NCBI GenBank assembly: GCA_964416445.1
Contig: CAYQEE010000010.1
Coordinates: 1,136 to 65,135, forward strand
Length of the DNA: 64,000 bases
Source of the DNA: an uncultured Gammaproteobacteria bacterium
Lineage (GTDB): Bacteria; Patescibacteriota; Microgenomatia; Levybacterales; UBA12049
Direction: 5' to 3'
A program made the position numbers and the translations under genes. Position 1 is the stretch's first letter, and each line of letters begins with the position of its first letter. The notes beneath the pieces are model-generated. The model was given only the letters and a program-made list of their open reading frames with translations. It was not told the DNA's origin and searched no databases. Below, piece after piece: positions 14,241-42,571 of the stretch.

Positions 14241-14269
14241 ATTGTACCTAATTTTAGCTTTCTACGCAA
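14241..14269 (-). promoter_or_regulatory. Sigma70-like promoter for rpmF (TTGCGT-17-TACAAT)
   Basis: On the minus strand, -35 is the rc of 14264-14269 and -10 is the rc of 14241-14246, with a 17-nt spacer. The predicted start lies only a few nt before the ATG, giving a near-leaderless transcript. Confidence 0.4.
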
Positions 14270-14329
14270 CTGCTAAATAGGAAGGCTATTAGTTAAGGAT
14301 ATTTATAATTAATCGTATAAAATACTATA

Positions 14330-14358
14330 TTGACATCAATTGATCTTGATGCTACTGT
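14330..14358 (+). promoter_or_regulatory. Sigma70-like promoter for the stand-alone REC gene (TTGACA-17-TACTGT)
   Basis: TTGACA at 14330-14335, 17-nt spacer, TACTGT at 14353-14358. The start codon (GTG) lies about 8 nt downstream, so the transcript would be leaderless. Confidence 0.35.
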
Positions 14359-14364
14359 AAATTT

Positions 14365-14793
14365 GTGGAAGCTGGAAAAATATTGATCGTCGAAGACGAA
14401 CTTTTTCTCCGCGAACTTTATATTGATACACTAACGCAAGAAGGGTACCAGATAGATTGGGCGTCGGAAGGTGAAGAGGCTCTTCAAAAAATCCTCAAAG
14501 GAGGTTTTGATCTAATCCTTCTTGATATTATTCTTCCGAAAATGAATGCGTTTCAAATCATGGAATCCTTGAACAATAACCCTGCGTACAAAGGGAATCA
14601 AACACCGATTGTCTTTTTAACCAATATCGATAATGATGGTGATATTAAAAAAGCATTATCTCTTGGCGGAGCTGGTTATCTGATTAAAAGTCAAATTACC
14701 CCCGGTGATCTGGTACGAGAAGTGAAAGTTTATTTCACAAAAAACTCTTCTGATAATTCTGCAGGACAAAATCCTTCGCTAGGAAATAGTTAA
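14365..14793 (+). CDS. Stand-alone response-regulator receiver (CheY-like REC) protein
   Basis: KILIVEDE...DLILLDIILPKMNAF...KS REC signature, 142 aa, no output domain. GTG start. Confidence 0.75.
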   Translation: MEAGKILIVEDELFLRELYIDTLTQEGYQIDWASEGEEALQKILKGGFDLILLDIILPKMNAFQIMESLNNNPAYKGNQTPIVFLTNIDNDGDIKKALSLGGAGYLIKSQITPGDLVREVKVYFTKNSSDNSAGQNPSLGNS

Positions 14794-16184
14794 TTCGCAA
14801 TTTTTAAGGAAAAGGTAAATGTTGTTCCTTTGTTCTCCCCTTCTGATGCTACTGTTACTGTTCCTCCGTGCAGTTCAATAATTGATTTCGTGATATATAG
14901 TCCGAGACCTGTTCCCTGTGTTGAAGGTTTTGCGAAATAATTTCCCTCGATCATCCCAAATTTTTGGAAAAGCTTTGGCATATCTTCTGCTTTAATCCCT
15001 TTTCCGGTATCGGTGATTGCGGTAACAATCATATCATTTTGCTTCGAAAATGATACAGTAATACTTCCCCCAGCTGGAGTGAATTTGAGTGAATTACCGA
15101 TGAGATTAATAAAGACTTCTTTCAGTTTTTCACTATCAGCTTGCACATTGGGTAAAGCGTCTGAAGGTGGCTTAACAATCAGTGATAATTGTTGATTTTG
15201 AATACTTGGAAGCACTTCTGCGGTGACGTCATTGATGAGTTGTAACAGATTTGTTGGTTTTAAGTTAATTGTCATTCTTCCTGATTCGATACGAGACACA
15301 TTCAACATATCATTCACTAACTTAATCAGTCGTTCGGTAGAAAAATACACACGATCTAAATATACTTTTTGTTTTTCTGTGAGTGTTCCCAGATCTCCTC
15401 TTTGCTGCAACACAAGCCAAAGGTACGACTTAATGGCTGTCATAGGAGTTCGCAATTCATGGGAAGCAAGTGAAACGAATTCGTCTTTGAGCTTATCAAG
15501 TCCTTTCAGGCGTTCATTCGCATCCTCAAGTTTTTTATAAAGCAGTGCATTGTTGAGTGCAATGCCAATGACTCCTAAGAGTCGTTCTATCAACTTTCGT
15601 TGATAGGTAAACAGTGTATCTTCACTTTTGCCTAAATTAATAATAATGGTACCGATGATAGCATTATTTTTCATAAAAAGAGGACAGATTATTGAAGAAA
15701 CAATTTCATCTGAAAAAGGAACGTTTAGTGGATTATTTTCGGTATGTGATGTCGTAACTAAATCACGAAACGAATGTGTCGTTTTAATCGTTTTATCGAG
15801 AACACTTCTTACAATAAGGTTATTATTTTCTGAAAGCGGGAGTGAGGTTACATACATTTGTGGCGAATTTGAAAAAATTTTTTGTACATAAGGTGTTGAT
15901 GATACTGCAAGAAGGTTAAGGTGATCTTCTGAGACCATATAAATAGCTACCGCTTTAAACTGCGCTTCGGAAGCAACTTTATCAACTACTTGTTGAGCGA
16001 TTTGCTTCACATCGGTAGCGCTTCCTAAAATAATGTCATCAATGGTACTGAGTAATGAAAGGGTAATATTTGTTTCGGCAAGTTCAAAATTTTTTTTATA
16101 GAGTTCCTCTGTCACATGACTTGTCTCTTGAGGATTGATATTAGTGGAATCGACGAGTTGTGTAGTCACAGAAGAAGCTCCCAT
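14790..16184 (-). CDS. Cytoplasmic GAF-domain sensor histidine kinase
   Basis: N-terminal GAF-like region. HisKA H-box SHELRTPMTAIKSY. HATPase_c N/G boxes (GNSLKFTPAGG, GTGLGLYI). No TM segments. Convergent with the REC gene, with a 4-nt overlap. Confidence 0.8.
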   Translation of the reverse strand: MGASSVTTQLVDSTNINPQETSHVTEELYKKNFELAETNITLSLLSTIDDIILGSATDVKQIAQQVVDKVASEAQFKAVAIYMVSEDHLNLLAVSSTPYVQKIFSNSPQMYVTSLPLSENNNLIVRSVLDKTIKTTHSFRDLVTTSHTENNPLNVPFSDEIVSSIICPLFMKNNAIIGTIIINLGKSEDTLFTYQRKLIERLLGVIGIALNNALLYKKLEDANERLKGLDKLKDEFVSLASHELRTPMTAIKSYLWLVLQQRGDLGTLTEKQKVYLDRVYFSTERLIKLVNDMLNVSRIESGRMTINLKPTNLLQLINDVTAEVLPSIQNQQLSLIVKPPSDALPNVQADSEKLKEVFINLIGNSLKFTPAGGSITVSFSKQNDMIVTAITDTGKGIKAEDMPKLFQKFGMIEGNYFAKPSTQGTGLGLYITKSIIELHGGTVTVASEGENKGTTFTFSLKIAN

Positions 16185-16207
16185 TCAACAAATTATAATA
16201 TGACATG

Positions 16208-16486
16208 TTACCGGAGTAAAGCAGGAATTTGATTGGGGGAAAGTTGGGTAATAATACTACTGACCGCTTCTTTACATGCTTCAATTGATGCTCTTCCAAA
16301 CAAATGTTGATATTGTTCCACCAGATGTTCAACGACTTCGGTTTCATTACCGATAATATGTATTTCGTGTTTTGGCCAATTGATTTCAAGTCCTTTTACT
16401 TTCTGCGCTTGTTCTATAGCCAGAGGACCAATGATACTTTCCTGTTTTTCAATTATTTTTTCAGCCATGTCAGAATAGATATTCAT
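16208..16486 (-). CDS. Hypothetical small cytosolic protein (92 aa) between the membrane protein and the GAF kinase
   Basis: ORF with tight spacing in a same-strand operon context. No recognisable motif. Confidence 0.4.
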   Translation of the reverse strand: MNIYSDMAEKIIEKQESIIGPLAIEQAQKVKGLEINWPKHEIHIIGNETEVVEHLVEQYQHLFGRASIEACKEAVSSIITQLSPNQIPALLR

Positions 16487-16496
16487 AAAATAACTG

Positions 16497-17303
16497 TTAA
16501 TGCTCTTTTATTTTTGCAACAACCATTTGTAATTGAAAAATTCCAAATGCCATTAAAAAGTACGATAAAACGTAAAGATAATCTAATATGCTTCCTGGAT
16601 AGTAGTTATTCTTAAAAATAATAAAGAAATAGTCCGCAAGAAATTGGGAAAAAAATGCAAGTAAAATGAAGAGTATTTTTTGTTTCATGATACCTCCTAA
16701 AATATTTCTTGTTAAAAATAAACTGAGCAAAGCAATCGAAATGTAAATTGCCTGGCCTGTAGGGTAACCAAAATTAAGAAAGGTTTCAATGGGATCCTTC
16801 AGATCGAAACTATAGTTTTTTAATATCGTAAAGTAGGCAATCAGAAGAATAGTAAGAGGTATTATTATTGCTTGTAATTTCGATTGGAATGATCTGAGCG
16901 ATACTTTAACTCCGGAAGTTTTCGCAATAAGGTATGATGCATAAATATAGAATGGAATTGTTCCAAAAAATCCAATATCTCCAATGGAGGGATAAGGAAT
17001 ATTCACATGTAAAATGAAAATATAATAGGAATAAGCAACTTGTCCAAATTCTTGGGCAAAAAGACCAAGCGAAAGCATAATAATTGCCCGTCCCATCATG
17101 CTTTTTAAGCCTCCCCACTCTTTAGAAAGAAGTAAACCCCAAAGTGCTCCCCACAATGCAATGATGCCATAGAAATTGCCGTAGTAAGCGTAGAGAGCAT
17201 TGGTCTTAGGGAGGAATACCGTCATATATACCCACCACCCGGTAAAGAAAATGAAGAGAAATACCAGTATTTTTGCGTACCAATATTTCTGTATTGTTTT
17301 CAT
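16497..17303 (-). CDS. Polytopic membrane protein (about 8 TM), candidate membrane sensor partner
   Basis: 268 aa, multiple hydrophobic helices rich in aromatic residues. Sits upstream in the same putative operon as the small ORF and the GAF-HK. Confidence 0.5.
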   Translation of the reverse strand: MKTIQKYWYAKILVFLFIFFTGWWVYMTVFLPKTNALYAYYGNFYGIIALWGALWGLLLSKEWGGLKSMMGRAIIMLSLGLFAQEFGQVAYSYYIFILHVNIPYPSIGDIGFFGTIPFYIYASYLIAKTSGVKVSLRSFQSKLQAIIIPLTILLIAYFTILKNYSFDLKDPIETFLNFGYPTGQAIYISIALLSLFLTRNILGGIMKQKILFILLAFFSQFLADYFFIIFKNNYYPGSILDYLYVLSYFLMAFGIFQLQMVVAKIKEH

Positions 17304-28135: not shown

Positions 28136-29341
28136 TTATTCCTCAACAGTGACTTCGATAAATTTTCGTTTTCCTACTTTAATAACCACGGAATCTCCAA
28201 TAGTAATCTCTTTATTTGGTTCGGTAATTCGTTCGTTATCGATTTCCACTCCACCTTGTTCAATAAGTCGTTTTGCTTCTGACTTACTGCTTGCAAGGCC
28301 TGTTGCGACGAGTAATTCAGCAATAATGAATAAATCATTATTTTTTTTGACGAAAAATTTTGGTACATCTACAGGCGCTTCTTTCTTTTGAACAGTTCTT
28401 TCGAAAGCATCCTGTGCATGTATTGCTGTTTGTTCCCCATGAAGAAGTTGAATAATTTCAAAAGCCAGCTTTTTTTTGTATTGCATAGGATGCATACCTT
28501 CTTTTATTGCTTTTTCAATAATTTGAATTTTTTGTTGCGGTATCTCAGTTAAGTAAAGAAAACCTTTTATAATCACTGAGTCAGGAAGTGACATGATTTT
28601 TCCAAACAAGTCACTTGGCGTATCGGTAAGAGCAATGACATTTCCTTCAGTTTTTCCTATTTTTCGTCCTTCAGCATCTGTCAGAAGCGGAGTTGTAAGG
28701 ACAAATTTCTCTCGCCCTTGCATTTCTCTAATTAAAGTTCTTCCACAAAGCATATTAAACGTTTGATCAGTTCCTCCAATTTCAAGGTCCACTGACATAG
28801 CAACTGAATCATATCCTTGCAGGAGAGGATAAATAAATTCTCGAAGATTTACTGGTTCGTTATTCTTAATTCGCTCTTGAAATAAATCCCTTTCAATCAT
28901 TTGTTGTAATGTAAAATGACCAGCAATATCAAGAATATCTACGAGTTTTAATGAATTTAACCAGTCGCCGTTATAGAGAATTTTTATGGGATTTTCACCG
29001 TCAAAACGAACAATATTGCCTGCTTGTTTAACATAATCAGTTGCATTCTTTCGAAGTTGTTCTCGAGTAAAGAACGTTTCTCGAGATTTCGTTTTTCCTG
29101 AAGGATCACCTGCTTGTCCTGTTCCATCTCCAATGAGAAATATGACATGATGACCTAAATCCTGCCATTGTTTGAGTTTCATAAGGCCAACCATATGTCC
29201 TATGTGAAGTTGGGTTCCTGTAGGATCAAATCCCATGTAAAGTGTTAATTTTTTCCCACTACGAAGAACTTTTTCGAGCTCCTCTTTTGATGGATATATT
29301 TTATCGACACCTCGAGTAAGTAGTTCAGTAATTTTATCCAT
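28136..29341 (-). CDS. tyrS: Tyrosyl-tRNA synthetase
   Basis: Class I HIGH motif (LHIGHMVG), KMSKS-like KIGKT, C-terminal S4 domain. 401 aa. Confidence 0.85.
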   Translation of the reverse strand: MDKITELLTRGVDKIYPSKEELEKVLRSGKKLTLYMGFDPTGTQLHIGHMVGLMKLKQWQDLGHHVIFLIGDGTGQAGDPSGKTKSRETFFTREQLRKNATDYVKQAGNIVRFDGENPIKILYNGDWLNSLKLVDILDIAGHFTLQQMIERDLFQERIKNNEPVNLREFIYPLLQGYDSVAMSVDLEIGGTDQTFNMLCGRTLIREMQGREKFVLTTPLLTDAEGRKIGKTEGNVIALTDTPSDLFGKIMSLPDSVIIKGFLYLTEIPQQKIQIIEKAIKEGMHPMQYKKKLAFEIIQLLHGEQTAIHAQDAFERTVQKKEAPVDVPKFFVKKNNDLFIIAELLVATGLASSKSEAKRLIEQGGVEIDNERITEPNKEITIGDSVVIKVGKRKFIEVTVEE

Positions 29342-29410
29342 TTTACCTTCATGAGTATATCATTTTACTTGGCAATTTTCATCTCTGCGGAAAAATACGT
29401 CGATATCATG

Positions 29411-31804
29411 TACTATAAAAGGAAGTTGATAAAAATCAATAAAAACACTTTTGGCAGCTCTTATTACAGGAAAGTATTTGTTTTGTGTTTGCTAGTATTT
29501 ATTTTACTTAGTATTTATCTGACAATTCTTTTATTATCACAGCGCCAACAGTTACAAGAGCATGCTGCAGGAAATGTTATTTATGCTAGTCCAGGTGATA
29601 ACCTAAACCAAAAAGTTAGTTCGCTTACTCCAGGTGATACGCTTATTTTTCATGATGGTATTTATAATGGATCGTTACCTGCAGCGAATATTCATGGTAC
29701 AAGTTCTCAACTTATAACAATTGAAGCAGAACATGATGGTATGGCAATCATTGATGGACAAAATACGGTAAGTACTGTTATTGATTTAAGTAATAGTTCT
29801 TACGTTCTCTTACAAGGTTTTGTTGCAAGGAATTCATCTGGCAGTGTCGTACGAGGCGATGGGAGTAATCATATAACCGTAAGTAGAGTTACTGCGTATA
29901 ATGCAGGGTCAGGAAATACGAATTGTTTTACCATGTCAAATGGGGCAAGTTATGATTTGGTTGTCGATGCAGCATCTTGGGGAAGATGCAGGTATGGTTT
30001 TCTCGCATACCATTCCAGTAATATAACGTTTCGCAGAACCTTTGCAAAATGGGAACAAACAGATAATTTTTCTCCTGCGCCTCGAAGTGGGTACGGAGCC
30101 TATGGGTCAACGTTTATCTCTTTTGAAAATGTAATCGGCTATGATATCCAACCAACAACCAATGTCTCCGACTTCTTTTCTGGCGTTTGGGAAACTTCTG
30201 ACGGTCCATCAACACATGATATTTCTTATTATGGTTCTATTTTTTATCATGTGTTAGGTGATGGAATTCGCGTAAATGACTTGCAAGCATTTCCTAATAC
30301 CATTATCAAAGATAGCTTTTTTAGCAATCCTCTGGTTCAAAATATTAGTTATCCCTTTACTAAAGGAGCAGGAATTGAATGGGTGACTCCAATAACTGGT
30401 ACGGTTAGTAATAATGTCTTTATGGGGAATAACATCGGAATCAATCAAGGAAACGGTGTCCCAAGTGTTATGAATAATATTTTTATGAATAATTCCACTG
30501 CAATATCGGGTTCAATTCAAGGAAGCTATAATGATTTTTGGCAAAATTCTAGTAATGGGTATACTCCAGGTTCAACAGATAAACAAATAGATCCAGCGTT
30601 TAATGTCGCAAAGTATGGATTAGGTGCATACTTTTTTGTACCTTCGACATCACCATTAAAAAATTCTGGACAGGGAGGAAGTGAAATTGGAGCAAATATT
30701 ATCTATGAGTATGTAAATGGTCAACTTACCAATGTCCCTCTATGGCCATGGCCTATGGAAAACAGAATTAAAGCAGAACGGGGTATTAGTGTTACATGGG
30801 CTTCAGGTGGAGGTTTTTGGAACTCTTTAGATGGTGTATATCCAAGTATTACTATTACTCTACCGATTTCTTCTCCCCAACCATCTCCTTCTAGTAGTCC
30901 AGTACCAACAAACACACCTCAACCAACAAGTCAACCAACGGGAACACCCAAACCAACGAGTACTCCTACTCCAACGCCAACGACGTATCCATCAGGCGTT
31001 ACTTATTGTGGAGCACATTGTCAATCCAATAGTGATTGTGATCAAAGTGGGGTAACCTGTGGAATTTGTGATCCTGACGCATTGGTCTGCACCACAGGAA
31101 ATGGTTCAATTACTCCTACTCCTTCCTTGTCTCTTACGCCAACCAGTGGTACTTCTGTAACACCAACTGATACCCCCTCACCAACTCAAACACGACTGAG
31201 TAGCCCTACTCCATTTACTACACTTACGCCTACCCCCACCCTTGGCCCAGCGGTGGGGATACTCTCTTTGCATTTTGAAGGAATTGATCCTCAAAACAAT
31301 AGTAAACCCACTCATCCCCAACGAAGTGTTCTACTTTCTTTTTATCCTACCAATGACTTTACAAAAACTCCTCAAACTACCCTTCCCGTGATTGTTTCTT
31401 TTAACTCTGCTGATCCACTGGGTTCTTTTGTCAACACCAATATTGATCTTTCCTCCATTCCACGAGGCAGTTACTATCTCCTCGCTAAATCTCCTGAAGG
31501 ATCTCTCAGAGAAGAACTCTCCTCACAACTGGTCTCTATCACCAATGGACAAACAGTCTCTCTCAATGGAACAACTCCTACCAATATGCAAATGGGTAAC
31601 ATTAATAATGATAATCAAATTGATCTATCTGACTATAATATTCTCGTTGATTGTTACGGAGCAAAACAAGCAAGCCCTGCCTGTAAAGTACATTCCATCT
31701 CAGACCAATACCAACCAAACTTCGCTGACCTCAATGACGATGGTATCGTCAATGGGGTCGATTACAATCTCTTAATAAGAAATTTTGGAAAAACTGGATA
31801 TTAA
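29411..31804 (+). CDS. Membrane-anchored or secreted right-handed beta-helix (pectate-lyase-fold) protein with Pro/Thr linker and C-terminal dockerin-like module
   Basis: N-terminal hydrophobic anchor. Periodic parallel-beta-helix repeats (NxxGSG.../SNH...). A roughly 120-aa low-complexity P/T/S linker (SPQPSPSSSPVPTNTPQPTSQPTGTPKPTSTPTPTPTT). Two dockerin-type Ca-binding repeats (NDNQIDLSDYNILVDCY; DLNDDGIVNGVDYNLLIRNF). Start moved from 29351 to the ATG at 29411 before the hydrophobic segment. Confidence 0.7.
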   Translation, partial: YYKRKLIKINKNTFGSSYYRKVFVLCLLVFILLSIYLTILLLSQRQQLQEHAAGNVIYASPGDNLNQKVSSLTPGDTLIFHDGIYNGSLPAANIHGTSSQLITIEAEHDGMAIIDGQNTVSTVIDLSNSSYVLLQGFVARNSSGSVVRGDGSNHITVSRVTAYNAGSGNTNCFTMSNGASYDLVVDAASWGRCRYGFLAYHSSNITFRRTFAKWEQTDNFSPAPRSGYGAYGSTFISFENVIGYDIQPTTNVSDFFSGVWETSDGPSTHDISYYGSIFYHVLGDGIRVNDLQAFPNTIIKDSFFSNPLVQNISYPFTKGAGIEWVTPITGTVSNNVFMGNNIGINQGNGVPSVMNNIFMNNSTAISGSIQGSYNDFWQNSSNGYTPGSTDKQIDPAFNVAKYGLGAYFFVPSTSPLKNSGQGGSEIGANIIYEYVNGQLTNVPLWPWPMENRIKAERGISVTWASGGGFWNSLDGVYPSITITLPISSPQPSPSSSPVPTNTPQPTSQPTGTPKPTSTPTPTPTTYPSGVTYCGAHCQSNSDCDQSGVTCGICDPDALVCTTGNGSITPTPSLSLTPTSGTSVTPTDTPSPTQTRLSSPTPFTTLTPTPTLGPAVGILSLHFEGIDPQNNSKPTHPQRSVLLSFYPTNDFTKTPQTTLPVIVSFNSADPLGSFVNTNIDLSSIPRGSYYLLAKSPEGSLREELSSQLVSITNGQTVSLNGTTPTNMQMGNINNDNQIDLSDYNILVDCYGAKQASPACKVHSISDQYQPNFADLNDDGIVNGVDYNLLIRNFGKTGY

Positions 31805-32080
31805 TTATTGTTCAATTTCCTCTGAAAATGAGAAAAAGATATGCCAAATTTTCTTAATGATCGTTTTTGGAATATTTTGTTCATCCGCCTTTTTCTCTAA
31901 TGCTTCAACTACTGTTTTTTCTCTTGGAAAATCTCGTATTTCAAATCCACCCGATTTTTTAAAATCGCCAATTTTTTTCATAATTTCAAGTCGTCTTTTA
32001 ACTAACTGTAATAATTCATTATCAAGTGCATCAATATCGCTTCGTAATTTTGCTAAATTGTCCGTATCGTTAACTTTCAT
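31805..32080 (-). CDS. Chorismate mutase (AroQ class, monofunctional, ~91 aa)
   Basis: LRSDIDALDNELLQLVKRRLEIMKKIG...R...K helical AroQ pattern. Start trimmed to the ATG at 32080 to give the usual size. 11-nt overlap with the pheA stop. Confidence 0.6.
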   Translation of the reverse strand: MKVNDTDNLAKLRSDIDALDNELLQLVKRRLEIMKKIGDFKKSGGFEIRDFPREKTVVEALEKKADEQNIPKTIIKKIWHIFFSFSEEIEQ

Positions 32081-32894
32081 AAATTGTGCCACGTTCATAG
32101 ACGCCAAGAATTTTATATGTGCTTGCATATTTTTGTAATATTTGTGAAATGAGATGCCTATCAATTAATGTAGGGGTAACTTCAACATCGATCCAAAATT
32201 GATATTCCCATTCAGTTCCGGGAATTGGGCGTGATTCAATTTTTGTTATATTAATCTTTCGGTCGGCTAATTGCATCAACAAATTCGCTAAGGAGCCTGG
32301 TGTATGGGGAATAGTAAAAATAATTGAAGACTTATTTCCTTGTGTTTCCTTCCTTTGAGAAGATACAAGGAAAAATCTGGTGATATTATAATGGTTATCC
32401 CCTATATTGGGCAATACAATAGTAAGGCGCGGGTCATTTGCTAATTCTTTACTTCCAATTGCCGCTGCACGTTTATCATCAATTTGCAGGATCAGATCTT
32501 TTGCATTTGCAGTACTTACTGTTTCTTGAAACGAAAGATGGTAGTTCTGGATAAAATTTTTGCACTGAGCAAGTGCTTTGGGGTGAGAATATACTTTTAT
32601 AATATCTTCAAGAGACGCAGTATGGAGTCCAATCAGATAAAGGTTTATTTTCAAATATGCTTCTTGTACTATCTTAAGATTTTCATGGAATAAATAATCC
32701 ATGTTTTCATGAATATTACTCGTGATTGAATTTTCAATGGGGAGCACTCCAATCGTGCGTGGATTTTCCATAACTTTTTCAACAATCTCTGCAAAGTTAG
32801 GACAGGACAATAACTGATAATCATCTCCAAAAACTTTTTTTGCAAGAATATGACTGTAGGAATTCTGTGGTCCTAAATAATATGCGCAAGTCAT
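32070..32894 (-). CDS. pheA: Prephenate dehydratase with C-terminal ACT domain
   Basis: PDT domain (YLGPQNSYSH...TIGVLPIENS...) plus ACT. 274 aa. Confidence 0.8.
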   Translation of the reverse strand: MTCAYYLGPQNSYSHILAKKVFGDDYQLLSCPNFAEIVEKVMENPRTIGVLPIENSITSNIHENMDYLFHENLKIVQEAYLKINLYLIGLHTASLEDIIKVYSHPKALAQCKNFIQNYHLSFQETVSTANAKDLILQIDDKRAAAIGSKELANDPRLTIVLPNIGDNHYNITRFFLVSSQRKETQGNKSSIIFTIPHTPGSLANLLMQLADRKINITKIESRPIPGTEWEYQFWIDVEVTPTLIDRHLISQILQKYASTYKILGVYERGTIYES

Positions 32895-33664
32895 CTAAAA
32901 TTTGCCTCCTTCTTTAATCTAATCAGTGTGTCAATACTGTGGGAAAGAAGCTGCCGGCTAAATTTATTATAAATAATCATATCAAGTAATAATGCTTTAT
33001 TAATCCCCATATAACTTAATGCTTCGAATAAGTAAGAGGGCGCTGGAGTATCAATAATAGTTGGGTTTAGTTTTTGCTCAGTGGCAAGATATCGTACCAT
33101 TTGTGCAAAAAATTGTGATTGCGCAACAAGTTTATCATGCTCCTGAGGATTCATTTCAGTGACTTGAATGCCAAGCGATTGAAAGTAATGCTTTACGCAA
33201 GCAAAGATGGTTTCAGGCGAAGAGACGTTATAAATTACCAAGGGCAATCCTGCTAATAGCCCTTCTTTTTTTGCAATACTTGTCGGCCCAAACATTGGAT
33301 GGGTAGCTATTATAGCAATATTTTTGGGAAGGTGTTTTTTGAGAATATTGACGGGGTATTCTTTTACTGAACAAACATCAATAATTGTTTGTGATGGGTT
33401 AATGAATTTTCCAATCTCTAACACGACAGCTTCAAATGATCGAATGGAAACAGCGGGGATAATTATATCTGCGGATTGTATGACTTCACCAATGGAAGCT
33501 TTAGGAGTGCAGTGTGTGGGTAAGGATTTTTTATGAATATGGGGAGAATAAACCACAATGCGGTTATTTGGAAATAAATTTTCACCTATTACTTCACCAA
33601 ATTTCCCATAACCGATGATTCCTAATGTTTTTTCTAACAAGTTGAAATGCATATGGTTATTCAT
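32891..33664 (-). CDS. tyrA: Prephenate/arogenate dehydrogenase
   Basis: Rossmann [12 protein letters not shown]-binding N-terminus, PDH C-domain. 257 aa. Embedded in the aro operon. Confidence 0.7.
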
Positions 33665-34749
33665 TCATTTTGTGCTTTATGCCGTAAGATATGATCCATG
33701 ATAACTAATGCGGCCATAGCATCAACAATTGGCACTGCGCGTGGTAGGACACAGGGGTCATGCCGACCAAATGCCTTTAGGGTGGTTTCCTCGCGTTGAC
33801 GGGTAATTGTTTTTTGCTCTCTCTGAATTGTAGACACTGGCTTAAATGCAACACGAAAATATATTGGTTGCCCTGTTGAGATACCACCTAAGGTACCACC
33901 TGCAAAATTAGTTCTTGTTTTTACATTTCCCTGTTGGTCTAAGTAAAATTCATCATTATGTTGGCTACCACGCAGTTCAACTCCTGAAAATCCTGAACCA
34001 AATTCAAATCCTTTTGTTGCGTTAATACTCATCATTGCTTTCGCAAGGTCTGCAGGAAGCTTATCGAAAACTGGTTCTCCAAGCCCTGCTGGCACCTGTT
34101 TGATGACTCCCCGGATAATTCCACCCACAGAATCTCCTTCATCTCGTATTTTTTCAATAAGGGCAATCATTTCTGAAGCAAGTTGCTTATCAGGACAACG
34201 CACAATAGTTGATTCGATCTGTTCTTTGGTGACTTCACGAAAGTCTATGTGCGTTTTAACTGTACCTACTTGTTCAACATAACTGAGAATTTCAATACCG
34301 TATTGTTCGGTTAGGTACTTTTTGGCAATGGCTCCAGCTGCTACACGTGCTAATGTTTCGCGTGCAGATGCTCGACCGCTTCCTCTCACATCGCGTATAC
34401 CATATTTTTTTTCGAAAGTATAATCTGCATGACCTGGCCGATAAACATTTGCTAAATGATCGTAATCTTCTGGCCTCATATCCATGTTATATGCAAGAAG
34501 AAGAATTGGTGTTCCCGTAGTTTTCCCTTCGAAGACACCAGACAGGATGTGAATACGGTCTTGTTCTTTTCTTGGTGTTGTTATACTGCTTTGACCGGGC
34601 TTTCGCCTATCAAGTTCTTTTTGAATTTCTTCCTGGGAAATCGATATGCCTGGGGGACATCCATCGACAACGCAACCCACTCCTCCCCCGTGAGATTCTC
34701 CAAATGTCGTTATTCGAAATAATTGTCCAAAAGTATTTCCTGGCATCAT
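33661..34749 (-). CDS. aroC: Chorismate synthase
   Basis: [18 protein letters not shown] signature. 362 aa. Confidence 0.9.
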
Positions 34750-35561
34750 TACTCCTTTTGCATAAGTACTCTTTCCATAATGTCTATTGGTGGTTCAACG
34801 CCTGTATATTGTGAAAATTTGAGAACTGCTTGCCAAAAAAGCATTCGTTCTCCATAAACTATTTTACACCCTTTTACTTGCGCATCTCGGATGAATTTTG
34901 TTTCCCGTGGTTTTGCAATTACATCCATAACGATTCGCTTTTCAGGAATTTCTGTTATGGGAACTACTGAATCATTCTCAGAATACATACCAACTGTTGT
35001 TGCTTGAATAATAATATCTGCATGCGATAATTCTTGTGAGAGATTTGTGAAAGAACCATACCTGCATGCAACTTTTTCAGCAAGATTCTTTGCATGTTCT
35101 TCGGTTCGATTTAAAATGATAACATTTGCCCCAGCATCTTTTAGTGCAAATGCTAACGCATGTGCAACTCCACCGGCACCAAGAAGCACAATGTTTTTTT
35201 TCGAGATTTCTGTTACTTCTTGCAATGCTTTTATTCCACCTTTTCCATCAGTATTTCCACCAATTAATTTCCCATTATGATTTGTAACGATATTGACTGC
35301 ACCAATTCTCTGCGCATCGTTATCAAGTTCATCGAGAAAAGGTATAATAGCAATTTTATAAGGTATGGTTACTCCTACGGCATGTAATCCTAATCCACGT
35401 ATTCCTTTTACTGCCTCAGCCAAATTTGTAACAATGAGAGGGATATAAATAAAATTAAGATTCAGTTCAGCAAAAGCAGCATTATATAATGCATACATTT
35501 TACTTGTTTTGTATGTTGTTCCCAAAAAACCTATTACTTTTGTTTCACCGTTAATTCTCAT
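34749..35561 (-). CDS. aroE: Shikimate dehydrogenase
   Basis: Shikimate-DH N-domain plus Rossmann GAGGVA. 270 aa. Confidence 0.8.
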
Positions 35562-36132
35562 AATTTTCTATTTTCATTACAATATCTGCCACAATTTCTT
35601 TTGGAAATTCTTGGTTAATTGGTATGTTAATATTTGCTAATCGTTCGTAGATTGGCATTCGAGTTGCTAAAAGTTCATCTAATGATTTTTTGGGATTATC
35701 TTGATATGGAAAAAAAGGAGGGATCCCTTTCGCACGTATCCTTTGCAATAATATTGATCGATCAACATTGAGATAAATAATTATTCCTAACGGTAATAGA
35801 AGCTTTTGATTATTCTCGGAAAGTATCGTGCCCCCCCCGACAGATAGCACGAACGGTTCGGATTGTTGCATATTTTTTATTAACTGTGCTAGTGCTGTAT
35901 GTTCGAGATTTCTGAAATTTTCAGAACCTTTTTTCTTGAAAATTTCTCGAGAAGAAAGTTTCTCAGAATATTTTTTTTCATATTCTTTTTCAAGTATCTG
36001 ATCTAATTCTAACTGGTGATATCCGAGCTTTTGGGCAAGCAGATTACCAATGGTAGTTTTACCACTGCCTTTCATTCCGATGAGAATAATATTTGGTTTA
36101 TTTCTCATAGAGCGTAAAGTTAGCTCCCGCAT
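35551..36132 (-). CDS. aroK: Shikimate kinase
   Basis: P-loop GMKGSGKTTIG. About 190 aa. The true start may be the internal ATG near 36108. Confidence 0.8.
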   Translation of the reverse strand: MRELTLRSMRNKPNIILIGMKGSGKTTIGNLLAQKLGYHQLELDQILEKEYEKKYSEKLSSREIFKKKGSENFRNLEHTALAQLIKNMQQSEPFVLSVGGGTILSENNQKLLLPLGIIIYLNVDRSILLQRIRAKGIPPFFPYQDNPKKSLDELLATRMPIYERLANINIPINQEFPKEIVADIVMKIENYEN

Positions 36133-37414
36133 CTTTCATATCGGGTATAAATGTATCAAATGATTTGTCTACCATTTGCGCATCAGAAATAGTTGTTTCT
36201 CCGTCAATTTGCATACCTGCAAGTGCGAATGAAAGAACCATTCGATGATCGAAATATCCATTAATTTGAGCAGCATGTAATTTCCAAGAACCATCATTAT
36301 CAATGAGTAATCCATCTTCTTTTTCAACTACTTTTGCACCCATTTTTTTAAGTTCTGTTGCTAAAGCACTGATACGATCACATTCTTTCCATCGAGCAGT
36401 TAATGCATTTTTAATTATTGTTTTTCCTTTTGCAAAACAGGCAGCGATGGCAATAGTAGGAACTTGGTCAGGTAAGTCATTCATATCAATTTCAAGTCCA
36501 TGTAATTGGCTTGTTCTTGCAGTAATTGTGTTGTTCTCAATAGTTATATCTGCTCCCATTTGTTCTAAGATCGTGAGAACTTTTTTATCTCCATACGGAT
36601 CTTGTAAATCCATTCCTCGTACTGTTATTTCTGATGAGGGTGTGAGCACGGCAGCTAATAATGGATAAGGTGGTGCAGACATTTCAAAGGGAATTTCCGC
36701 ATCAAATGAATGAGGTAATGTATTGCCTGAAAATTTATAATGATCATATCTATTATCGACATTTTCAAATGATACCCCTACTTTCTTAAACCAATACAAA
36801 AGTAAATCAATATATGCTTTTTCTCCAGGATTTCTAACAAATATCTCAACAGGTTTATTCGACATAGCTGAGGCAATAAGAACACTAAATACTGGTTGGC
36901 AACCTATACCATCCATATGCGCTACACCTCCATTTACTTTTCCTTTGATAAGGAATGGTGCCATTCCATCATTTTTTGTAGATATTATCGTTATGCCAAG
37001 TTGTTGAAATGGTTCAAGTAATTTCTCAGAAATTTTACGAAGCGTTCGAATTGATTTATCACCAGTAATAATAGACCATTCTGAACATGCTGCAGCGACA
37101 CCTAAAATAAAAAATAACATTGTTCCTGAATTGTTGACATTAATTATATCAGGAGGTGTATGTAAATTTCCTCCAACTCCAGTTATCTGAAAAATATTAG
37201 GTTCAAGTTCTTCGATTTTTGCTCCATACATTTTCATCGCATTTACAGCTTCATACCAATCAGCACTTACTTTTGGCTTTCGTATTATTGAAATCCCTTG
37301 AGCTAACGAAGCTAAGATAAGTGCTCGAAATGAATGTGTTTTACTTCGAGGCATACGAATATTCCCACGTAAATGTTTACTTTTTTTAACGGACAATATC
37401 ATGTTTTTTTTCAT
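36098..37414 (-). CDS. aroA: 3-phosphoshikimate 1-carboxyvinyltransferase (EPSP synthase)
   Basis: 438 aa. N-terminal LRGNIRMPRSKTHSFRALILASLAQG EPSPS signature. Confidence 0.85.
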   Translation of the reverse strand: MKKNMILSVKKSKHLRGNIRMPRSKTHSFRALILASLAQGISIIRKPKVSADWYEAVNAMKMYGAKIEELEPNIFQITGVGGNLHTPPDIINVNNSGTMLFFILGVAAACSEWSIITGDKSIRTLRKISEKLLEPFQQLGITIISTKNDGMAPFLIKGKVNGGVAHMDGIGCQPVFSVLIASAMSNKPVEIFVRNPGEKAYIDLLLYWFKKVGVSFENVDNRYDHYKFSGNTLPHSFDAEIPFEMSAPPYPLLAAVLTPSSEITVRGMDLQDPYGDKKVLTILEQMGADITIENNTITARTSQLHGLEIDMNDLPDQVPTIAIAACFAKGKTIIKNALTARWKECDRISALATELKKMGAKVVEKEDGLLIDNDGSWKLHAAQINGYFDHRMVLSFALAGMQIDGETTISDAQMVDKSFDTFIPDMKDAGANFTLYEK

Positions 37415-37417
37415 AAA

Positions 37418-37855
37418 TTATTTCCTTACATAAGTAACCAATTTTTTGAGACCTTCATAATAACTTTTCTCCTGTAATCCAACGATCTGATCAATCCGAA
37501 CATCGTCGAGTACATTGATTGCCTTACTAATTCCTGTTTTATGAATATCAGACATATGAACTTCTATAATAGGTTTACTGAAATCAATACATGCAGCGCG
37601 AAGACTATATCCATAACGAACGAGAGCTCCAGGATTTATTACTGCACCTTCTGCTGCTCGTGACGAATCTTGTTGGAGAAAGTCAATAATTGCTCCTTCA
37701 TGATTTGATTGAAAAATAGATAATTCGCATCCTAATGATTTACCAAGTATTTCAAGTTGATGGTTAATTTCCGAAAGTGTCAGTTTACCGTATTTATTGG
37801 AATCACGTTTTCCTAACATGTTAAGATTTGGCCCGTGAATAATTAATGCTTTCAT
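37418..37855 (-). CDS. aroQ: 3-dehydroquinate dehydratase, type II
   Basis: MKALIIHGPNLNMLGKR...H motif of type II DHQase. 145 aa. Confidence 0.85.
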   Translation of the reverse strand: MKALIIHGPNLNMLGKRDSNKYGKLTLSEINHQLEILGKSLGCELSIFQSNHEGAIIDFLQQDSSRAAEGAVINPGALVRYGYSLRAACIDFSKPIIEVHMSDIHKTGISKAINVLDDVRIDQIVGLQEKSYYEGLKKLVTYVRK

Positions 37856-37857
37856 AA

Positions 37858-38946
37858 TTATCTAATTTCTTTCAATGCTGTGCGAATAATGTTTTCAGAA
37901 ACTTGCTGGTTATATTTCGCTCTACCGATTTTTTCCAATAAGGTCCACTGTAAAACACCGTTCTCTATTTTTTTATCAAACATAATATTTCTCAGTATGT
38001 CTTCTTCGGTAATAAAGTGAATTGTTGTTTGAAGACCTGTATCTTTCAGCTTATGAATAACATATTCACTTTCTTCATGCGAGAGCAATTTCTGTAATTC
38101 AGATATTCGCGTTTCTACAATCATACCTAAAAGAATTGCTTCTCCATGCATAAGTGGCATACTCGAGGTAAAACTCAGAGATTCAATTGCATGACCAATA
38201 GTATGTCCAAAGTTAAGGATTTTCCTCAAACCTTTTTCTGTTGCATCTGTTTCAACTATTTTTGCTTTAATTTCAACAGATCGTAATATAATTTCTGCTA
38301 ACTCAGAATTGGTAAATTCAAAAGGTTTTTTAGCTGTTACTTTTTCAAAGTAGTTTCTATCTATGAGTAATCCATGTTTAATAATTTCAGCAAATCCTTC
38401 TAGGAACGCTCTTTTTGGTAATGTTTTTAGTGTCTCAATATCAATAATAACTGCTGAGGGTTGCGTGAACGTTCCAATATAATTTTTAAACTCATTTAAA
38501 TTAATACCGAGTTTTCCTCCGACCATAGCATCAACCTGAGCAGTAATGCTAGTTGGAATTTGAATGAATTCTATTCCTCGCATATACGTACTTGCTGCAA
38601 ATCCTCCCATATCTCCAATGACACCTCCTCCTAAGTTAATCACTAAGGAATTTCTATCAAATTGATTTTTGAGAAGATGATTCCATATCGTTGTTACGGT
38701 ATCAATAGTTTTTACTTTTTCCCCAGGAGGTAAAACCAATGGATAAAGAGGACTCTCCATACCTGATTGTAATTTTACTAACCAAGGTTTCTGTACATTA
38801 CTGTCAGTGATGACGGCAATTTTTGAGTATCCTTCTCTTGGTAATATTCGAGAAATATCTTTTAGCATATCTTCACCAATAAATACGGTATAAGAATGTG
38901 ACTTTTCCGGAATATGAATTGTTGTTTTATACATCATAGGTTTCAT
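37858..38946 (-). CDS. aroB: 3-dehydroquinate synthase
   Basis: 362 aa. GGGVIGDMGGFAA glycine-rich NAD motif. Metal-binding His residues. Confidence 0.85.
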   Translation of the reverse strand: MKPMMYKTTIHIPEKSHSYTVFIGEDMLKDISRILPREGYSKIAVITDSNVQKPWLVKLQSGMESPLYPLVLPPGEKVKTIDTVTTIWNHLLKNQFDRNSLVINLGGGVIGDMGGFAASTYMRGIEFIQIPTSITAQVDAMVGGKLGINLNEFKNYIGTFTQPSAVIIDIETLKTLPKRAFLEGFAEIIKHGLLIDRNYFEKVTAKKPFEFTNSELAEIILRSVEIKAKIVETDATEKGLRKILNFGHTIGHAIESLSFTSSMPLMHGEAILLGMIVETRISELQKLLSHEESEYVIHKLKDTGLQTTIHFITEEDILRNIMFDKKIENGVLQWTLLEKIGRAKYNQQVSENIIRTALKEIR

Positions 38947-38966
38947 AGAAATTTACTAATGATTAT

Positions 38967-39755
38967 CTATATTTTTTGTTTCGCTTTTTCCTTTTCAAGA
39001 TCGTCGGTTAATACTTGGAGTTGTTTCCAAGTTATTTGTTGTTTGGCATCAGTAACAGCAACCGATGGATTTGGATGTACTTCTATAATCAAGCCATCAA
39101 TGTTGTATTGGTTTGCTTCATGCGCAATTCGAAACACATTCTCGACAGTCCCTCCAGTATGTGATGGATCAAATACCATAGGAAGACCCGTTTTCTTTTT
39201 TATTCTCATTGACATCTCCCAATCAGGAATATTTCGATATCCTTGAGGGTTTTCTCCATAAGGTACAAAACCTCGGTGGCAAAGAATAAGATTTTCTTTT
39301 TTTACTCCTCCAGCAAGAACATGCTCTACAATTCCTTCCCAATGTTTTTCATCTGGCCATATTTGATTTTTAACCATAAGGACGATTCGCTTATCTTGTG
39401 CTGCTATCCGTGCGAGTTCTCGTTGGATATAATGATTTTGGTTTCTTGCTCCAATCCAAATCATAAGTTTTCCATTCTTTAATTCGGGAAGAACGGCATC
39501 AATCACTTTTTTTGCCTGTTCAGGAATGAGCGGTTCTACTGCAGGATTGAGACCAGCTTTTGCTGCTTGGATCAAAAATGGAATCCCATTCTCTCCAAAC
39601 CCTTCAAAACCAGGTTTTGTGCGTGGTTTCCATAAACTGAGCCTAATAAAATCAACACCGAAGTTTTTTGCTTGTGTGATTGATTCTGTCACCTGTGCTT
39701 GTGACTCAACTGCACAAGGTCCGGCAATAATTATTGTTTTTCTTCGTTTTTTCAT
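38967..39755 (-). CDS. aroG: 3-deoxy-7-phosphoheptulonate (DAHP) synthase, type I-beta (KDO8PS-like)
   Basis: IIIAGPCAVES...LWKPRT...DPSH pattern of the DAHPS/KDOPS family. Its position as first gene of the aro operon favours DAHPS. Start trimmed from the ORF-track 39866 to the ATG at 39755. Confidence 0.75.
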   Translation of the reverse strand: MKKRRKTIIIAGPCAVESQAQVTESITQAKNFGVDFIRLSLWKPRTKPGFEGFGENGIPFLIQAAKAGLNPAVEPLIPEQAKKVIDAVLPELKNGKLMIWIGARNQNHYIQRELARIAAQDKRIVLMVKNQIWPDEKHWEGIVEHVLAGGVKKENLILCHRGFVPYGENPQGYRNIPDWEMSMRIKKKTGLPMVFDPSHTGGTVENVFRIAHEANQYNIDGLIIEVHPNPSVAVTDAKQQITWKQLQVLTDDLEKEKAKQKI

Positions 39756-39765
39756 ATTTAGGTAT

Positions 39766-39788
39766 AAAAAAACCTCCCTTGTGGGAGG
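39766..39788 (-). terminator. Leader-region intrinsic terminator (attenuator 3:4 hairpin) directly upstream of aroG
   Basis: Minus-strand RNA CCUCCC-ACAA-GGGAGG followed by U7. It ends 11 nt before the aroG ATG. Confidence 0.6.
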
Positions 39789-39811
39789 TGCTGTTTCTTC
39801 TTTTGTGTGTT

Positions 39812-39886
39812 TTATTTTACACGAAACAACCTCCCGGGTTGGGAAGTAAAGTAAAAATAAAACCAACTTTTATTTTGTAAATGCAT
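39812..39886 (-). CDS. Aromatic amino-acid attenuation leader peptide (24 aa: MHLQNKSWFYFYFTSQPGRLFRVK)
   Basis: A small ORF in the aroG leader with a run of UGG UUU UAU UUU UAC UUU (W F Y F Y F) immediately 5' of hairpin arm 1 (CUUCCC, 39846-39841). Its stop codon lies between the alternative hairpins. Confidence 0.55.
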   Translation of the reverse strand: MHLQNKSWFYFYFTSQPGRLFRVK

Positions 39887-40237: not shown

Positions 40238-42571
40238 ATGGGGTTCGAGAGTCGTCGGCAGCGCATGAGAGCACGAGGTAGCCGAATTGTTCTTCTTAGT
40301 CGGATCAGCACTTTCATCTTCTTCGGTTTGATCGCAATTATCGTGATTGTGCTTCTTGGTTTTATTTGGTATGGACGTGATTTGCCAACTCCTGGAAAAT
40401 TAATTCAATCGCAAGGGAATCAATCAACTCGTATTTATGATAGAAATGGTGTTCTTCTCTATTCCGTATTTGCAAATCAGAATAGAGTTTATGTCAATTT
40501 AGCGGATATTCCTAAAAATCTACAAAATGCAACCATTTCAATAGAAGATAAAGGATTTTATAGTAATGCTGGGTTTTCTCCCCTTAGTTATTTGCGTGTT
40601 CTTAAAGATATTATATTACATGGAAATGTCACGGGAGGTTCTGGTATAACCCAACAACTAGTAAAAAACACGTTAATCTCTTCAGAAAGAACACTTCCCC
40701 GAAAAATTAAAGAATTGATTCTTGCAATTCAGGTAAACAATAAATATACAAAGAATCAAATTCTTGAAATGTATCTCAATGATGTTTCTTATGGAGGTAA
40801 TGATATTGGTGTAGAAGCAGCAGCTGAAACTTACTTTGGTAAACATGTGAATCAGTTGGATTTAGCACAAAGTGCTTTTCTTGCTGGACTTCCCCAAGGA
40901 CCATCATTATATGATCCCTTTAACGGAAATAAATATTACTTAACTCGAAGCCAACAAGTTTTGGATAGTATGGTATCGGACGGTATCATTTCTCAAAAAC
41001 AGGATACGGATGCATATAATGAAATTAAAGGTTTCCAATTTGTTAATCATGATCAATCAATAAAAGCGCCACACTTTGTTATGTACGTCAAACAGCTTCT
41101 CCAAGATAAACTTGGCTTTTCACCGACAATGATTCAAAATGGTGGATTACAAGTTACGACAACACTTGATTATGATTTTCAACAGAAAGCAGAAACAATT
41201 GTAAAGTCAGAAATAGATAATTTAAAAATCTATAAAGTGAGCAATGGTGCTGCAATTGTAACTGATCCGAAAACGGGTGAAGTGCTCACTATGGTAGGAA
41301 GTAAAGACTATTTTGATCAATCGATTGATGGTGAATACAATGATGCACTGGCAAATCGTCAACCAGGGTCATCATTAAAGCCGATCATGTATTCAGTCGC
41401 TTTTGAAAAAGGATATACCCCTGCAACTATGGTCATGGATGTCCAAACAGATTTTCCAACGAATGATCCCAAAACTCCAATATATACGCCAGTAAATTAT
41501 TCAGGTAAGTTCCAAGGACCAATTCAATTGCGATTTGCTCTGGGAAATTCGTTAAATATTCCCGCCGTTAAAATGCTTGCGAGAGTAGGTATTAAAGATG
41601 TTATGCAGAAAGCTTATGATATGGGAATTCAAAATTGGCAACCTACTCCACAAAATTTATCAAGTGTTGGCTTATCATTAGTTCTTGGAGGTCGAGAAAC
41701 AACACTTCTTGATGAAACGACTGCTTACGGTGTTTTTGCAAATGGAGGAGTCCGTCAAGATCCGATCTTTATACTGAAAGTTACCGATAGTAAAGGAAAT
41801 ATACTTTATCAAGCGCATCCTTCACAAGGGTCACGTGTATTATCACCAGAAGTTTCTTTTCTTATCTCTCATATTTTGTTAGATAATAATGCTCGTATTA
41901 TGGATTTTGGTCCAAATTCCTGGCTTGTTGTTCCAGGAAAAACAGTTTCTGTCAAAACAGGAACAACAGATAATAAGAAAGATAACTGGACAATGGGATA
42001 TACTCCATCCTATGTTGTAGGTGTTTGGGTAGGAAATAATGATGATACGCCTATGAATCAAGCTATCTCTTCAGGAGTAACTGGAGCATCCCCAATTTGG
42101 GAGAAAATTATGTCGGCAATATTGAAAGGGAAACCAGATGAAGCTCCTCAAAAACCTGATGATGTGAATGCCCTTACCATTGACTCAATTGGAGGTGGAT
42201 TACCTGTCTCTGGGCAACCTACGCGATCAGAATACTTTATTAAAGGCACAGAACCAACCGGTCCTTCTGCCATTTATCAAAATTTAAAGCTTTCGAAACA
42301 TGATCATGGGAAGTTAGCAAGCCCGTGGGAAGTAGCTAATAATCAATTTGATACTGGTGCATATATTGTCTTTCATGAAGATGATCCAGTCTCAACTGAT
42401 GGCCAAAATCGATGGCAAGCAGGAATTAATTCTTGGCTTCAGACGAACTATCAAGGTCAAGACCAATATCATCCGCCAACAGATACGTCCAGTTATTCTG
42501 AAGGTGGAGGTACACAACCTACTGCTACACCCACCCCAACGCAAACACCGACGCCGACCTCAAGCCAATAG
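40238..42571 (+). CDS. Bifunctional penicillin-binding protein 1A (GT51 transglycosylase + transpeptidase) with C-terminal Pro/Thr-rich tail
   Basis: N-terminal TM. GT51 motifs (EDKGFY, GGSGITQQLVKN). TP motifs (SxxK region, SGN-like, KTGTT). C-terminal TQPTATPTPTQTPTPTSSQ. 777 aa. Confidence 0.85.
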   Translation: MGFESRRQRMRARGSRIVLLSRISTFIFFGLIAIIVIVLLGFIWYGRDLPTPGKLIQSQGNQSTRIYDRNGVLLYSVFANQNRVYVNLADIPKNLQNATISIEDKGFYSNAGFSPLSYLRVLKDIILHGNVTGGSGITQQLVKNTLISSERTLPRKIKELILAIQVNNKYTKNQILEMYLNDVSYGGNDIGVEAAAETYFGKHVNQLDLAQSAFLAGLPQGPSLYDPFNGNKYYLTRSQQVLDSMVSDGIISQKQDTDAYNEIKGFQFVNHDQSIKAPHFVMYVKQLLQDKLGFSPTMIQNGGLQVTTTLDYDFQQKAETIVKSEIDNLKIYKVSNGAAIVTDPKTGEVLTMVGSKDYFDQSIDGEYNDALANRQPGSSLKPIMYSVAFEKGYTPATMVMDVQTDFPTNDPKTPIYTPVNYSGKFQGPIQLRFALGNSLNIPAVKMLARVGIKDVMQKAYDMGIQNWQPTPQNLSSVGLSLVLGGRETTLLDETTAYGVFANGGVRQDPIFILKVTDSKGNILYQAHPSQGSRVLSPEVSFLISHILLDNNARIMDFGPNSWLVVPGKTVSVKTGTTDNKKDNWTMGYTPSYVVGVWVGNNDDTPMNQAISSGVTGASPIWEKIMSAILKGKPDEAPQKPDDVNALTIDSIGGGLPVSGQPTRSEYFIKGTEPTGPSAIYQNLKLSKHDHGKLASPWEVANNQFDTGAYIVFHEDDPVSTDGQNRWQAGINSWLQTNYQGQDQYHPPTDTSSYSEGGGTQPTATPTPTQTPTPTSSQ

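Follow-up and report, generated by a model that had tools for sequence, protein, structure and literature searches.

The plus-strand gene at 29408..31804 of a 64-kb window (the whole 64,000-nucleotide stretch of contig CAYQEE010000010.1 that was analyzed) encodes a 798-aa protein, which we read as an exported, modular surface enzyme docked through a C-terminal XDoc-like tag, i.e., an X-module-like beta-sandwich directly followed by a dockerin. We assign this reading a probability of roughly 0.55. The architecture of the protein, its folds and its family relations were derived from sequence comparison and structure prediction. According to the proposed mechanism, the leader would direct export via the Sec pathway and would probably be cut at HAAG, just before the beta-helix. 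The beta-helix, as the working part, would act on a polysaccharide in a groove lined by conserved Asp, Arg, Glu, and Asn residues, while approximately 90 residues of proline/threonine/serine-rich (P/T/S) linker would hold the enzyme off its attachment point and give it reach. Finally, the XDoc dyad would bind, with calcium, a cohesin carried by a small protein that is anchored in the membrane and encoded at another place in the genome. An XDoc tag docked to a membrane-anchored cohesin would keep the enzyme on the cell surface, so that it does not diffuse away. The gene and the parts of its product are as follows.

29408..31804, plus strand: complete gene, 798 aa plus stop codon
29408..29566, plus strand: export leader, residues 1-53 (hydropathy: basic N-region 1-22, hydrophobic segment 23-44, then SQRQQLQEHAAG at residues 45-53)
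29567..30847, plus strand: right-handed parallel beta-helix, residues 54-480 (AlphaFold2, Foldseek, and family alignment)
30848..30985, plus strand: P/T/S linker 1, residues 481-526 (76% P/T/S)
30986..31102, plus strand: six-cysteine mini-module, residues 527-565 (C-x3-C-x5-C-x6-C-x2-C-x6-C)
31103..31243, plus strand: P/T/S linker 2, residues 566-612 (72% P/T/S)
31244..31591, plus strand: X-module-like beta-sandwich, residues 613-728, 116 aa (AlphaFold2 and Foldseek)
31592..31801, plus strand: dockerin, residues 729-798 (two calcium-loop/helix repeats; loops at 31598-31633 and 31727-31762)

The C-terminal XDoc-like dyad and its family

By predicted fold and by sequence profile, the C-terminus of the protein is an XDoc-like dyad. 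Two-part docking tags of this type are what keeps the cellulose-degrading complexes of bacteria assembled. The AlphaFold2 model of residues 605-798, based on 66 sequences, has a predicted local distance difference test score (pLDDT) of 93.4 and a predicted template-modeling score (pTM) of 0.87; such a pTM for a two-domain piece suggests that the sandwich and the dockerin have a fixed arrangement and form one rigid unit. The top five Foldseek matches of this model are all XDoc dyads of Clostridium thermocellum CipA or CipB (5G5D_B, 2B59_B, 3KCP_A, 4FL4_L, and 5M0Y_B), with E-values of 4e-6 to 4e-4 over 188-200 aligned columns, and all other matches have E-values of at least 7e-3. When a sequence profile of the module was compared with PDB chains, the CipA type II XDoc scored best (E 1.4e-6) and type I dockerins were found at 1e-4 to 1e-3; the profile alignment to the CipA XDoc already includes the final strands of its X-module. 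The beta-sandwich has, in addition, weak, sub-threshold matches to the type IX secretion system (T9SS) sorting domain. The first-pass annotation had described a bare C-terminal dockerin and overlooked the 116-aa beta-sandwich in front of it.

The dockerin itself is matched by the Pfam model Dockerin_1 (PF00404) at residues 732-792 with 24.9 bits (cutoff 22.9), and the corresponding scores of close relatives are 33-47 bits. A motif scan of all six frames of the window found two calcium-loop motifs, NINNDNQIDLSD and DLNDDGIVNGVD, which are unique to the open reading frame (ORF) of the target protein; they form the tandem of 12-residue loops with Asp or Asn at positions 1, 3, 5, 9, and 12 that is characteristic of dockerins. 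In the AlphaFold2 model a helix follows each loop. Both methods confirm the two C-terminal repeats noted earlier, which had been called canonical without distinction; this description holds for the second loop, but the first one deviates from the consensus. In the family alignment the cysteine pair C749/C759 between the repeats is invariant and presumably forms a disulfide, and the DYN motif that follows each loop is fully or almost invariant.

The XDoc-like tag seems to behave as a portable unit. The sandwich and the dockerin stay together in the relatives that share the full architecture, namely P0002 (83% identity), P0003 (48%), and P0004 (49%), and the same pair is found behind a different N-terminal part in P0096. 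Two of these relatives carry an extra domain after an internal XDoc (approximately residues 740-1095 in P0002 and 750-1152 in P0003), for which Pfam gave no match at E<=0.01; judged by eye, this domain is presumably GH5-like in P0002 and beta-propeller-like in P0003.

A single-sequence search with the C-terminal 186 aa returned one match, and a five-sequence profile was used instead. With this profile we identified 106 relatives in a set of 5.8 billion proteins; five of the six named ones belong to Patescibacteria (Saccharimonadales, Levybacteria, and "PAT1"). An exhaustive search of 1.84 billion cluster representatives yielded 6,710 matches at E<=0.001, of which 2,382 reach E<=1e-10 and 1,668 reach E<=1e-30, and the match to the tag nearly always ends at the C-terminus of the protein. 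The cargo of 76 longer members, as classified by Pfam, is diverse: CBM_4_9 domains occur in 14 of them, followed by ricin and F5/8 type C lectins, and further cargo includes BD-FAE esterases, phosphoesterases, VWA, subtilase, GH39, GH99, a pectate-lyase-like helix, and a peptidoglycan-binding domain. No Pfam or NCBIfam model covers the dyad as a whole. Since the same tag occurs on more than 1,000 other proteins, the named ones mostly from ultra-small bacteria of the Candidate Phyla Radiation (CPR), it is probably a general cell-surface attachment tag in these bacteria.

The closest known counterpart is the XDoc dyad of C. thermocellum CipA (2B59, 5G5D, 3KCP, and 4FL4; 5M0Y for CipB), in which an immunoglobulin-like sandwich likewise stands directly before a two-repeat dockerin and helix 1 has a cysteine at the matching position of its end. 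By analogy, the expected role of the tag would be attachment to a cell-surface cohesin. However, the superposition on the CipA and CipB dyads is loose (identity of only 16-18%, template-modeling score (TM) of 0.48-0.59, root-mean-square deviation of 6-7 Å), and the inter-repeat cysteine pair and the presence of the DYN motif in both repeats set the target family apart. The context of the tag differs as well: it is carried by an enzyme and by other single cargoes, not by a multi-cohesin scaffoldin; the cohesins of the relatives are single and sit on an N-terminal membrane segment, not on proteins anchored by S-layer homology (SLH) domains; and the organisms encoding the tag are apparently Patescibacteria rather than cellulolytic Firmicutes.

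The beta-helix domain

The AlphaFold2 model of the beta-helix has a pLDDT of 94.6 and a pTM of 0.94 (70-sequence alignment). Its best Foldseek matches in the PDB are the polysaccharide lyase Pel9A (PL9), GH136 lacto-N-biosidases, a PL31 alginate lyase, and many PL6 lyases, with identities of 10-14% and TM of 0.4-0.6. The pectate-lyase- or polysaccharide-lyase-like beta-helix of the first-pass annotation thus stands as a fold; membership in PL6 or PL9 does not follow from it. Pel9A (1RU4) and the GH136 enzymes LnbX and BsaX are the top structural neighbors (identity 10-13%, TM 0.49-0.58), and their catalytic residues cannot be mapped on the target. We did not file the domain under PL9: Pel9A is the top fold match at 13% identity, and a precomputed match to Pel9A-like_beta_helix (PF22842) is on record but was absent from our own hmmscan at E<=1.

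The relation to PL6 is confined to the N-terminal part of the domain. The Pfam model Chondroitinas_B, the only one besides Dockerin_1 with a match above its cutoff, barely passes its threshold (24.1 bits against a cutoff of 24), and the match covers only residues 64-122, i.e., profile positions 5-63 of 426. In a profile search of the PDB, the family profile matched PL6 structures with an E-value of about 1e-13, again confined to the first approximately 90 residues. The single beta-helix sequence had no match in the PDB, and a profile of the central coils had no significant one there; its match to a mannuronan C5-epimerase at E 0.08 was not used as evidence. PL6 membership was rejected, as only the first approximately 90 residues align and the whole catalytic beta-helix is not matched. 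With PL6 similarity limited to the N-terminal part and no significant match for the central coils, the domain is best described as a distant relative of the PL6- and PL9-type lyases that is not a member of PL6 and probably not of PL9 either, and it is presumably of a carbohydrate-active type. It shares with chondroitinase B and the alginate lyases AlyGC and Pedsa0632 (all PL6) the right-handed beta-helix and a homologous cap and first coils. In chondroitinase B, a catalytic Lys/Arg pair acts together with a calcium-binding Asn/Glu/Glu site. The coils that are catalytic in PL6 do not align with the target family. No Lys is invariant in this family; it shows instead an E-D / R-R / E-N ladder of its own (D187, R209/R210, and E240/N241 are conserved) and, at the C-terminal end, an LWPWPME cap that PL6 lacks.

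A homolog search identified 92 proteins including the identical P0001 (91 further), most of which have 450-600 aa and consist of the beta-helix alone. The few named homologs are annotated as "chondroitinase-B domain-containing protein" (Gottesmanbacteria and Caldilineaceae) or as a hypothetical protein (Desulfobacteraceae), and a scan of genome contigs revealed remoter homologs, 30-33% identical, in Nitrospirota and Cytophagia. The most conserved part of this family is the C-terminal cap (…PLWPWPMENRI…SVTW…). In addition, ten polar residues are near-invariant (R160, N170, E186, D187, R195, R209, R210, Y232, E240, and N241), and in the strand pattern of the model they line up on one turn across four consecutive coils. 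In beta-helix enzymes the substrate groove is usually found at such a position, and the conserved polar ladder on the four coils presumably marks the groove of the target family as well. The beta-helix most likely binds and cleaves a polysaccharide, which possibly contains uronic acids. The gene context of homologs gives a weak hint at acidic exopolysaccharide substrates: the homolog P0010 is encoded in a polysaccharide-synthesis cluster with a UDP-glucose dehydrogenase, a priming transferase, and deacetylases, the P0004 gene is flanked by GT2 glycosyltransferases, and the P0031 gene adjoins a phosphoesterase.

The target protein departs from the ladder at one position. Glu186 is present in 94% of the beta-helix family and is replaced by Val in the target (window 29963-29965) and in its 83%-identical relative P0002. 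This replacement raises the alternative that the beta-helix is non-enzymatic, a glycan-binding or adhesive module in a protein that would serve as a whole as a surface adhesin. Such a role would fit the lectin-like nature of much XDoc cargo (CBM_4_9, ricin, and F5/8 type C), and an adhesin function has been proposed by others for non-cellulosomal dockerin proteins (PMC10066038, PMC10633639). We consider it distinctly unlikely, as the target keeps every other listed polar residue, among them D187, R195, R209, R210, Y232, E240, and N241. Moreover, the four sequences without Glu186 all have WGRCRY in place of WGxGRY, and the joint occurrence of both changes suggests a co-varying active-site variant that defines a functional subfamily rather than decay.

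Proposed export and docking, and candidate cohesin partners

The leader region agrees with export of the protein. Residues 23-44 (22 aa) constitute the sole strongly hydrophobic segment of the protein and stand behind the basic N-region, as expected for the membrane anchor or signal that had been annotated earlier. Of 76 XDoc cargo proteins, 47 have the motif '...LTV..SQQxQ(E/D)xR(S/Q)(R/K)A(A)G' behind the hydrophobic segment, and SQRQQLQEHAAGN of the target conforms to it. The same Q-rich motif ending with A(A)G is also present in many beta-helix-only homologs, so it is typical of the lineage and not tied to the XDoc tag. No curated model matches this motif, and NCBIfam has no model for it. 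The motif may represent a lineage-typical processing region of signal peptides, and the conserved small residues that immediately precede the mature domain point to a signal-peptidase site. A second secreted protein encoded in the window carries the similar stretch …NIKQAHAAGDS.

Candidate partners of the tag were identified in other organisms. Two proteins, P0184 and P0188, combine a signal peptide, a cohesin (36.1 and 33.3 bits, respectively; cutoff 24.1), and a dockerin with the same cysteine pair. Furthermore, two Saccharimonadales assemblies (loci L016 and L017) contain a same-strand cluster in which three XDoc-type genes alternate with three small cohesin-type genes. In L017, the cluster is located at positions 10001-17032 of Saccharimonadales DATIIO010000026.1 and comprises the following genes.

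Gene 1: P0103, XDoc protein
Gene 2: XDoc-type protein, 554 aa
Gene 3: cohesin protein, 203 aa (24.2 bits)
Gene 4: XDoc-type protein, 491 aa
Gene 5: cohesin protein, 193 aa (29.2 bits)
Gene 6: protein with a C-terminal membrane segment, 298 aa, between the second and third cohesin genes
Gene 7: cohesin-like protein, 183 aa (19 bits, below the cutoff)

All three small proteins of the cluster have an N-terminal hydrophobic segment and a single cohesin. This layout, from one locus type in another organism, is as expected if membrane-anchored cohesins hold XDoc proteins on the surface, and by analogy it is plausible that a cohesin partner of the target is encoded elsewhere in its genome. The XDoc-type proteins of the cluster are Cys-rich, and a cupredoxin gene follows the cluster. 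A cellulosome, in which a scaffoldin with several cohesins assembles dockerin-bearing enzymes that act on plant cell walls, was also considered for the target and rejected, as the window and its flanks contain no cohesin and the cohesin proteins of the relatives are single-cohesin proteins.

Several points weigh against the reading of the target as a surface-docked enzyme. Within the 64-kb window, a Pfam scan of ten candidate secreted ORFs and six-frame searches with phmmer and a hidden Markov model (HMM) detected no cohesin, in agreement with the first-pass annotation. Likewise, none was found in the short contig flanks recovered beyond the window, or beside the XDoc genes of P0004, P0153, and P0123; a cohesin HMM built from five CPR cohesins gave nothing beyond its training sequences in the window and the fetched loci. 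The first calcium loop is off consensus: position 1 is N rather than D, and position 6 is N rather than G. The structures discussed here are all predicted models, and calcium and cohesin binding are likewise predictions. The replacement of Glu186 by Val makes the catalytic competence of the target uncertain, and with no significant match of the central coils to solved enzymes a lyase is indistinguishable from a hydrolase and the substrate cannot be named. Finally, it is possible that the leader is an uncleaved signal-anchor.

The cohesin searches, negative for the window and for the surroundings of three other XDoc genes, bear on the alternative that the target organism has no cohesin partner at all and that the dyad is a calcium-stabilized fold that binds glycan, cell wall, or nothing. 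Non-cellulosomal dockerins are already known, and many of them occur in genomes without recognizable cohesins, according to the work of Peer et al. (2009) as it is cited in PMC10066038. The weak, sub-threshold T9SS sorting domain matches of the beta-sandwich would also be compatible with a different function. However, the DYN(I/L)L helix face is retained in both repeats and its residues are invariant across the family, three cohesin genes are interleaved with XDoc genes in L016/L017, and P0184 and P0188 fuse a cohesin to the same dockerin subtype. We therefore give the absence of a partner only a small probability.

According to another alternative, the uncleaved leader would be the true anchor and the XDoc would face outward as an adaptor for cohesin proteins or for a cohesin-like receptor on another cell, so that the protein would function as an adhesin or bridge. 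The 22-residue hydrophobic segment behind a long basic n-region, and the unusually long distance of approximately 10 residues from this segment to the putative cleavage site, are in line with such an arrangement. Moreover, the internal position of XDoc in P0002 and P0003 implies that the tag is not always a terminal anchor, and the cohesin-dockerin fusions P0184 and P0188 could form chains. On the other hand, A(A)G immediately precedes the mature domain in many unrelated cargoes, which is a typical signal-peptidase pattern, and the cohesins that adjoin XDoc genes are membrane-anchored, which fits the cohesin as the anchor and the XDoc as the tag. Overall, we regard a permanently anchored target as unlikely, and favor the cleaved and docked enzyme.

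The target protein alone would be an ordinary modular secreted enzyme; the tag family is of more interest at the level of the system. We tentatively propose, at somewhat less than even odds, a cohesin-dockerin surface display across Patescibacteria, in which small single-cohesin membrane proteins hold more than 1,600 clusters of XDoc cargo including the target; such a system would furnish the surface with which the cell faces its host or its environment. How CPR bacteria furnish their cell surface and make contact with hosts or substrates is largely unknown. If XDoc is indeed a general surface-attachment signal, then the surface proteome of these bacteria would be readable from sequence, XDoc and the membrane-anchored cohesin would constitute a testable binding pair, and cohesin-dockerin assembly would extend well beyond plant-cell-wall degradation. 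A precedent is SEML1_0315, a protein with a dockerin domain that is essential in the cultivated saccharibacterium Southlakia epibionticum and for which host glycans were suggested as the target (PMC10633639). Likened by description only, it resembles the target as a cell-envelope protein with a dockerin in a Patescibacteria-type organism and in its proposed role of binding or degrading host glycans. The report on SEML1_0315 is limited to a dockerin domain, in contrast to the dyad with an X-module, the family size, the range of cargo, and the adjoining membrane cohesins described here. In the literature that we searched, neither an XDoc dyad nor a cohesin-dockerin system is described for Patescibacteria, which does not prove novelty.

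Linkers, gene boundaries, and the rest of the window

The region between the beta-helix and the dyad had been annotated as one long P/T/S linker. Its composition is as described; however, there are two linkers, split by the six-cysteine insert. Among 334 proteins this insert is found only in the target's own cluster and is absent from P0002, P0003, and P0004, and it has no match in Pfam or the PDB. A P/T-rich tail (…TQPTATPTPTQTPTPTSSQ) that resembles the target linkers is present in a 777-aa protein encoded at window 40238-42571, which we assign by eye to the class A penicillin-binding-protein family.

The ORF of the target spans 29351..31804 on the plus strand and most likely starts with the ATG at 29408. 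The gene annotated earlier (start at 29411, 800 aa) is real; its start had been placed one codon inside this ATG, and the product has 798 aa. An identical (100%) 798-aa protein, P0001, is on record in NCBI/Logan, and the Logan contig L006 has the same gene call. Immediately after the stop codon at 31802-31804, the convergent chorismate mutase gene ends with its own stop at 31805. Upstream, the gene is divergent from tyrS (28136..29341, minus strand; Pfam match tRNA-synt_1b), with the following region between them.

29342..29407, no strand: divergent tyrS/target intergenic region, 66 nt between the starts at 29341 and 29408

This length agrees with the approximately 70 nt given earlier. In a promoter and terminator scan of the tyrS/target region, promoter-like hexamers were found at 29369-29396 on the plus strand and at 29439-29412 and 29382-29354 on the minus strand, and their count was not above that in shuffled sequences.

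The window has a GC content of 31-42% and encodes many housekeeping proteins. A ten-gene operon for shikimate, phenylalanine, and tyrosine biosynthesis is located at 31805-39866 on the minus strand. Its shikimate part encodes DAHP synthase, DHQ synthase, DHQase II, EPSP synthase, shikimate kinase, shikimate dehydrogenase, and chorismate synthase, and its Phe/Tyr part encodes prephenate dehydrogenase, prephenate dehydratase, and chorismate mutase. The complete operon argues against a strongly reduced metabolism, and with purH also present in the window, the minimal genome and episymbiont-like lifestyle suggested by the first-pass annotation find no support in the window; the host-surface glycan degradation or adhesion that it considered is speculative. 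Named homologs point to Patescibacteria as the source of the window.

Other genes of the window encode additional envelope functions. A type IV pilus cluster at 2-11466 contains genes for two T2SSE ATPases, a T2SSF platform protein, PilM/N/O-like proteins, several pilin-like proteins with a GFTLxE leader, and a prepilin-peptidase-like membrane protein. Two adjacent minus-strand genes, 56537-57181 and 57251-57859, encode small secreted or membrane proteins that could be cell-wall hydrolases, judging from weak, sub-threshold matches to glucosaminidase/SLT (lysozyme-like) domains; the signal peptide of the former ends with AHAAG. The trigger factor ORF at 55571-56506 (GTG start) overlaps the tRNA-Leu gene at 56430-56512; its Pfam match covers the protein only from residue 40 onward, which makes a true start further downstream probable. 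ARAGORN also predicted a tRNA-Cys gene at 62901-62981 on the minus strand (81 nt, anticodon position 38), for which the Rfam tRNA model was silent at its gathering score.

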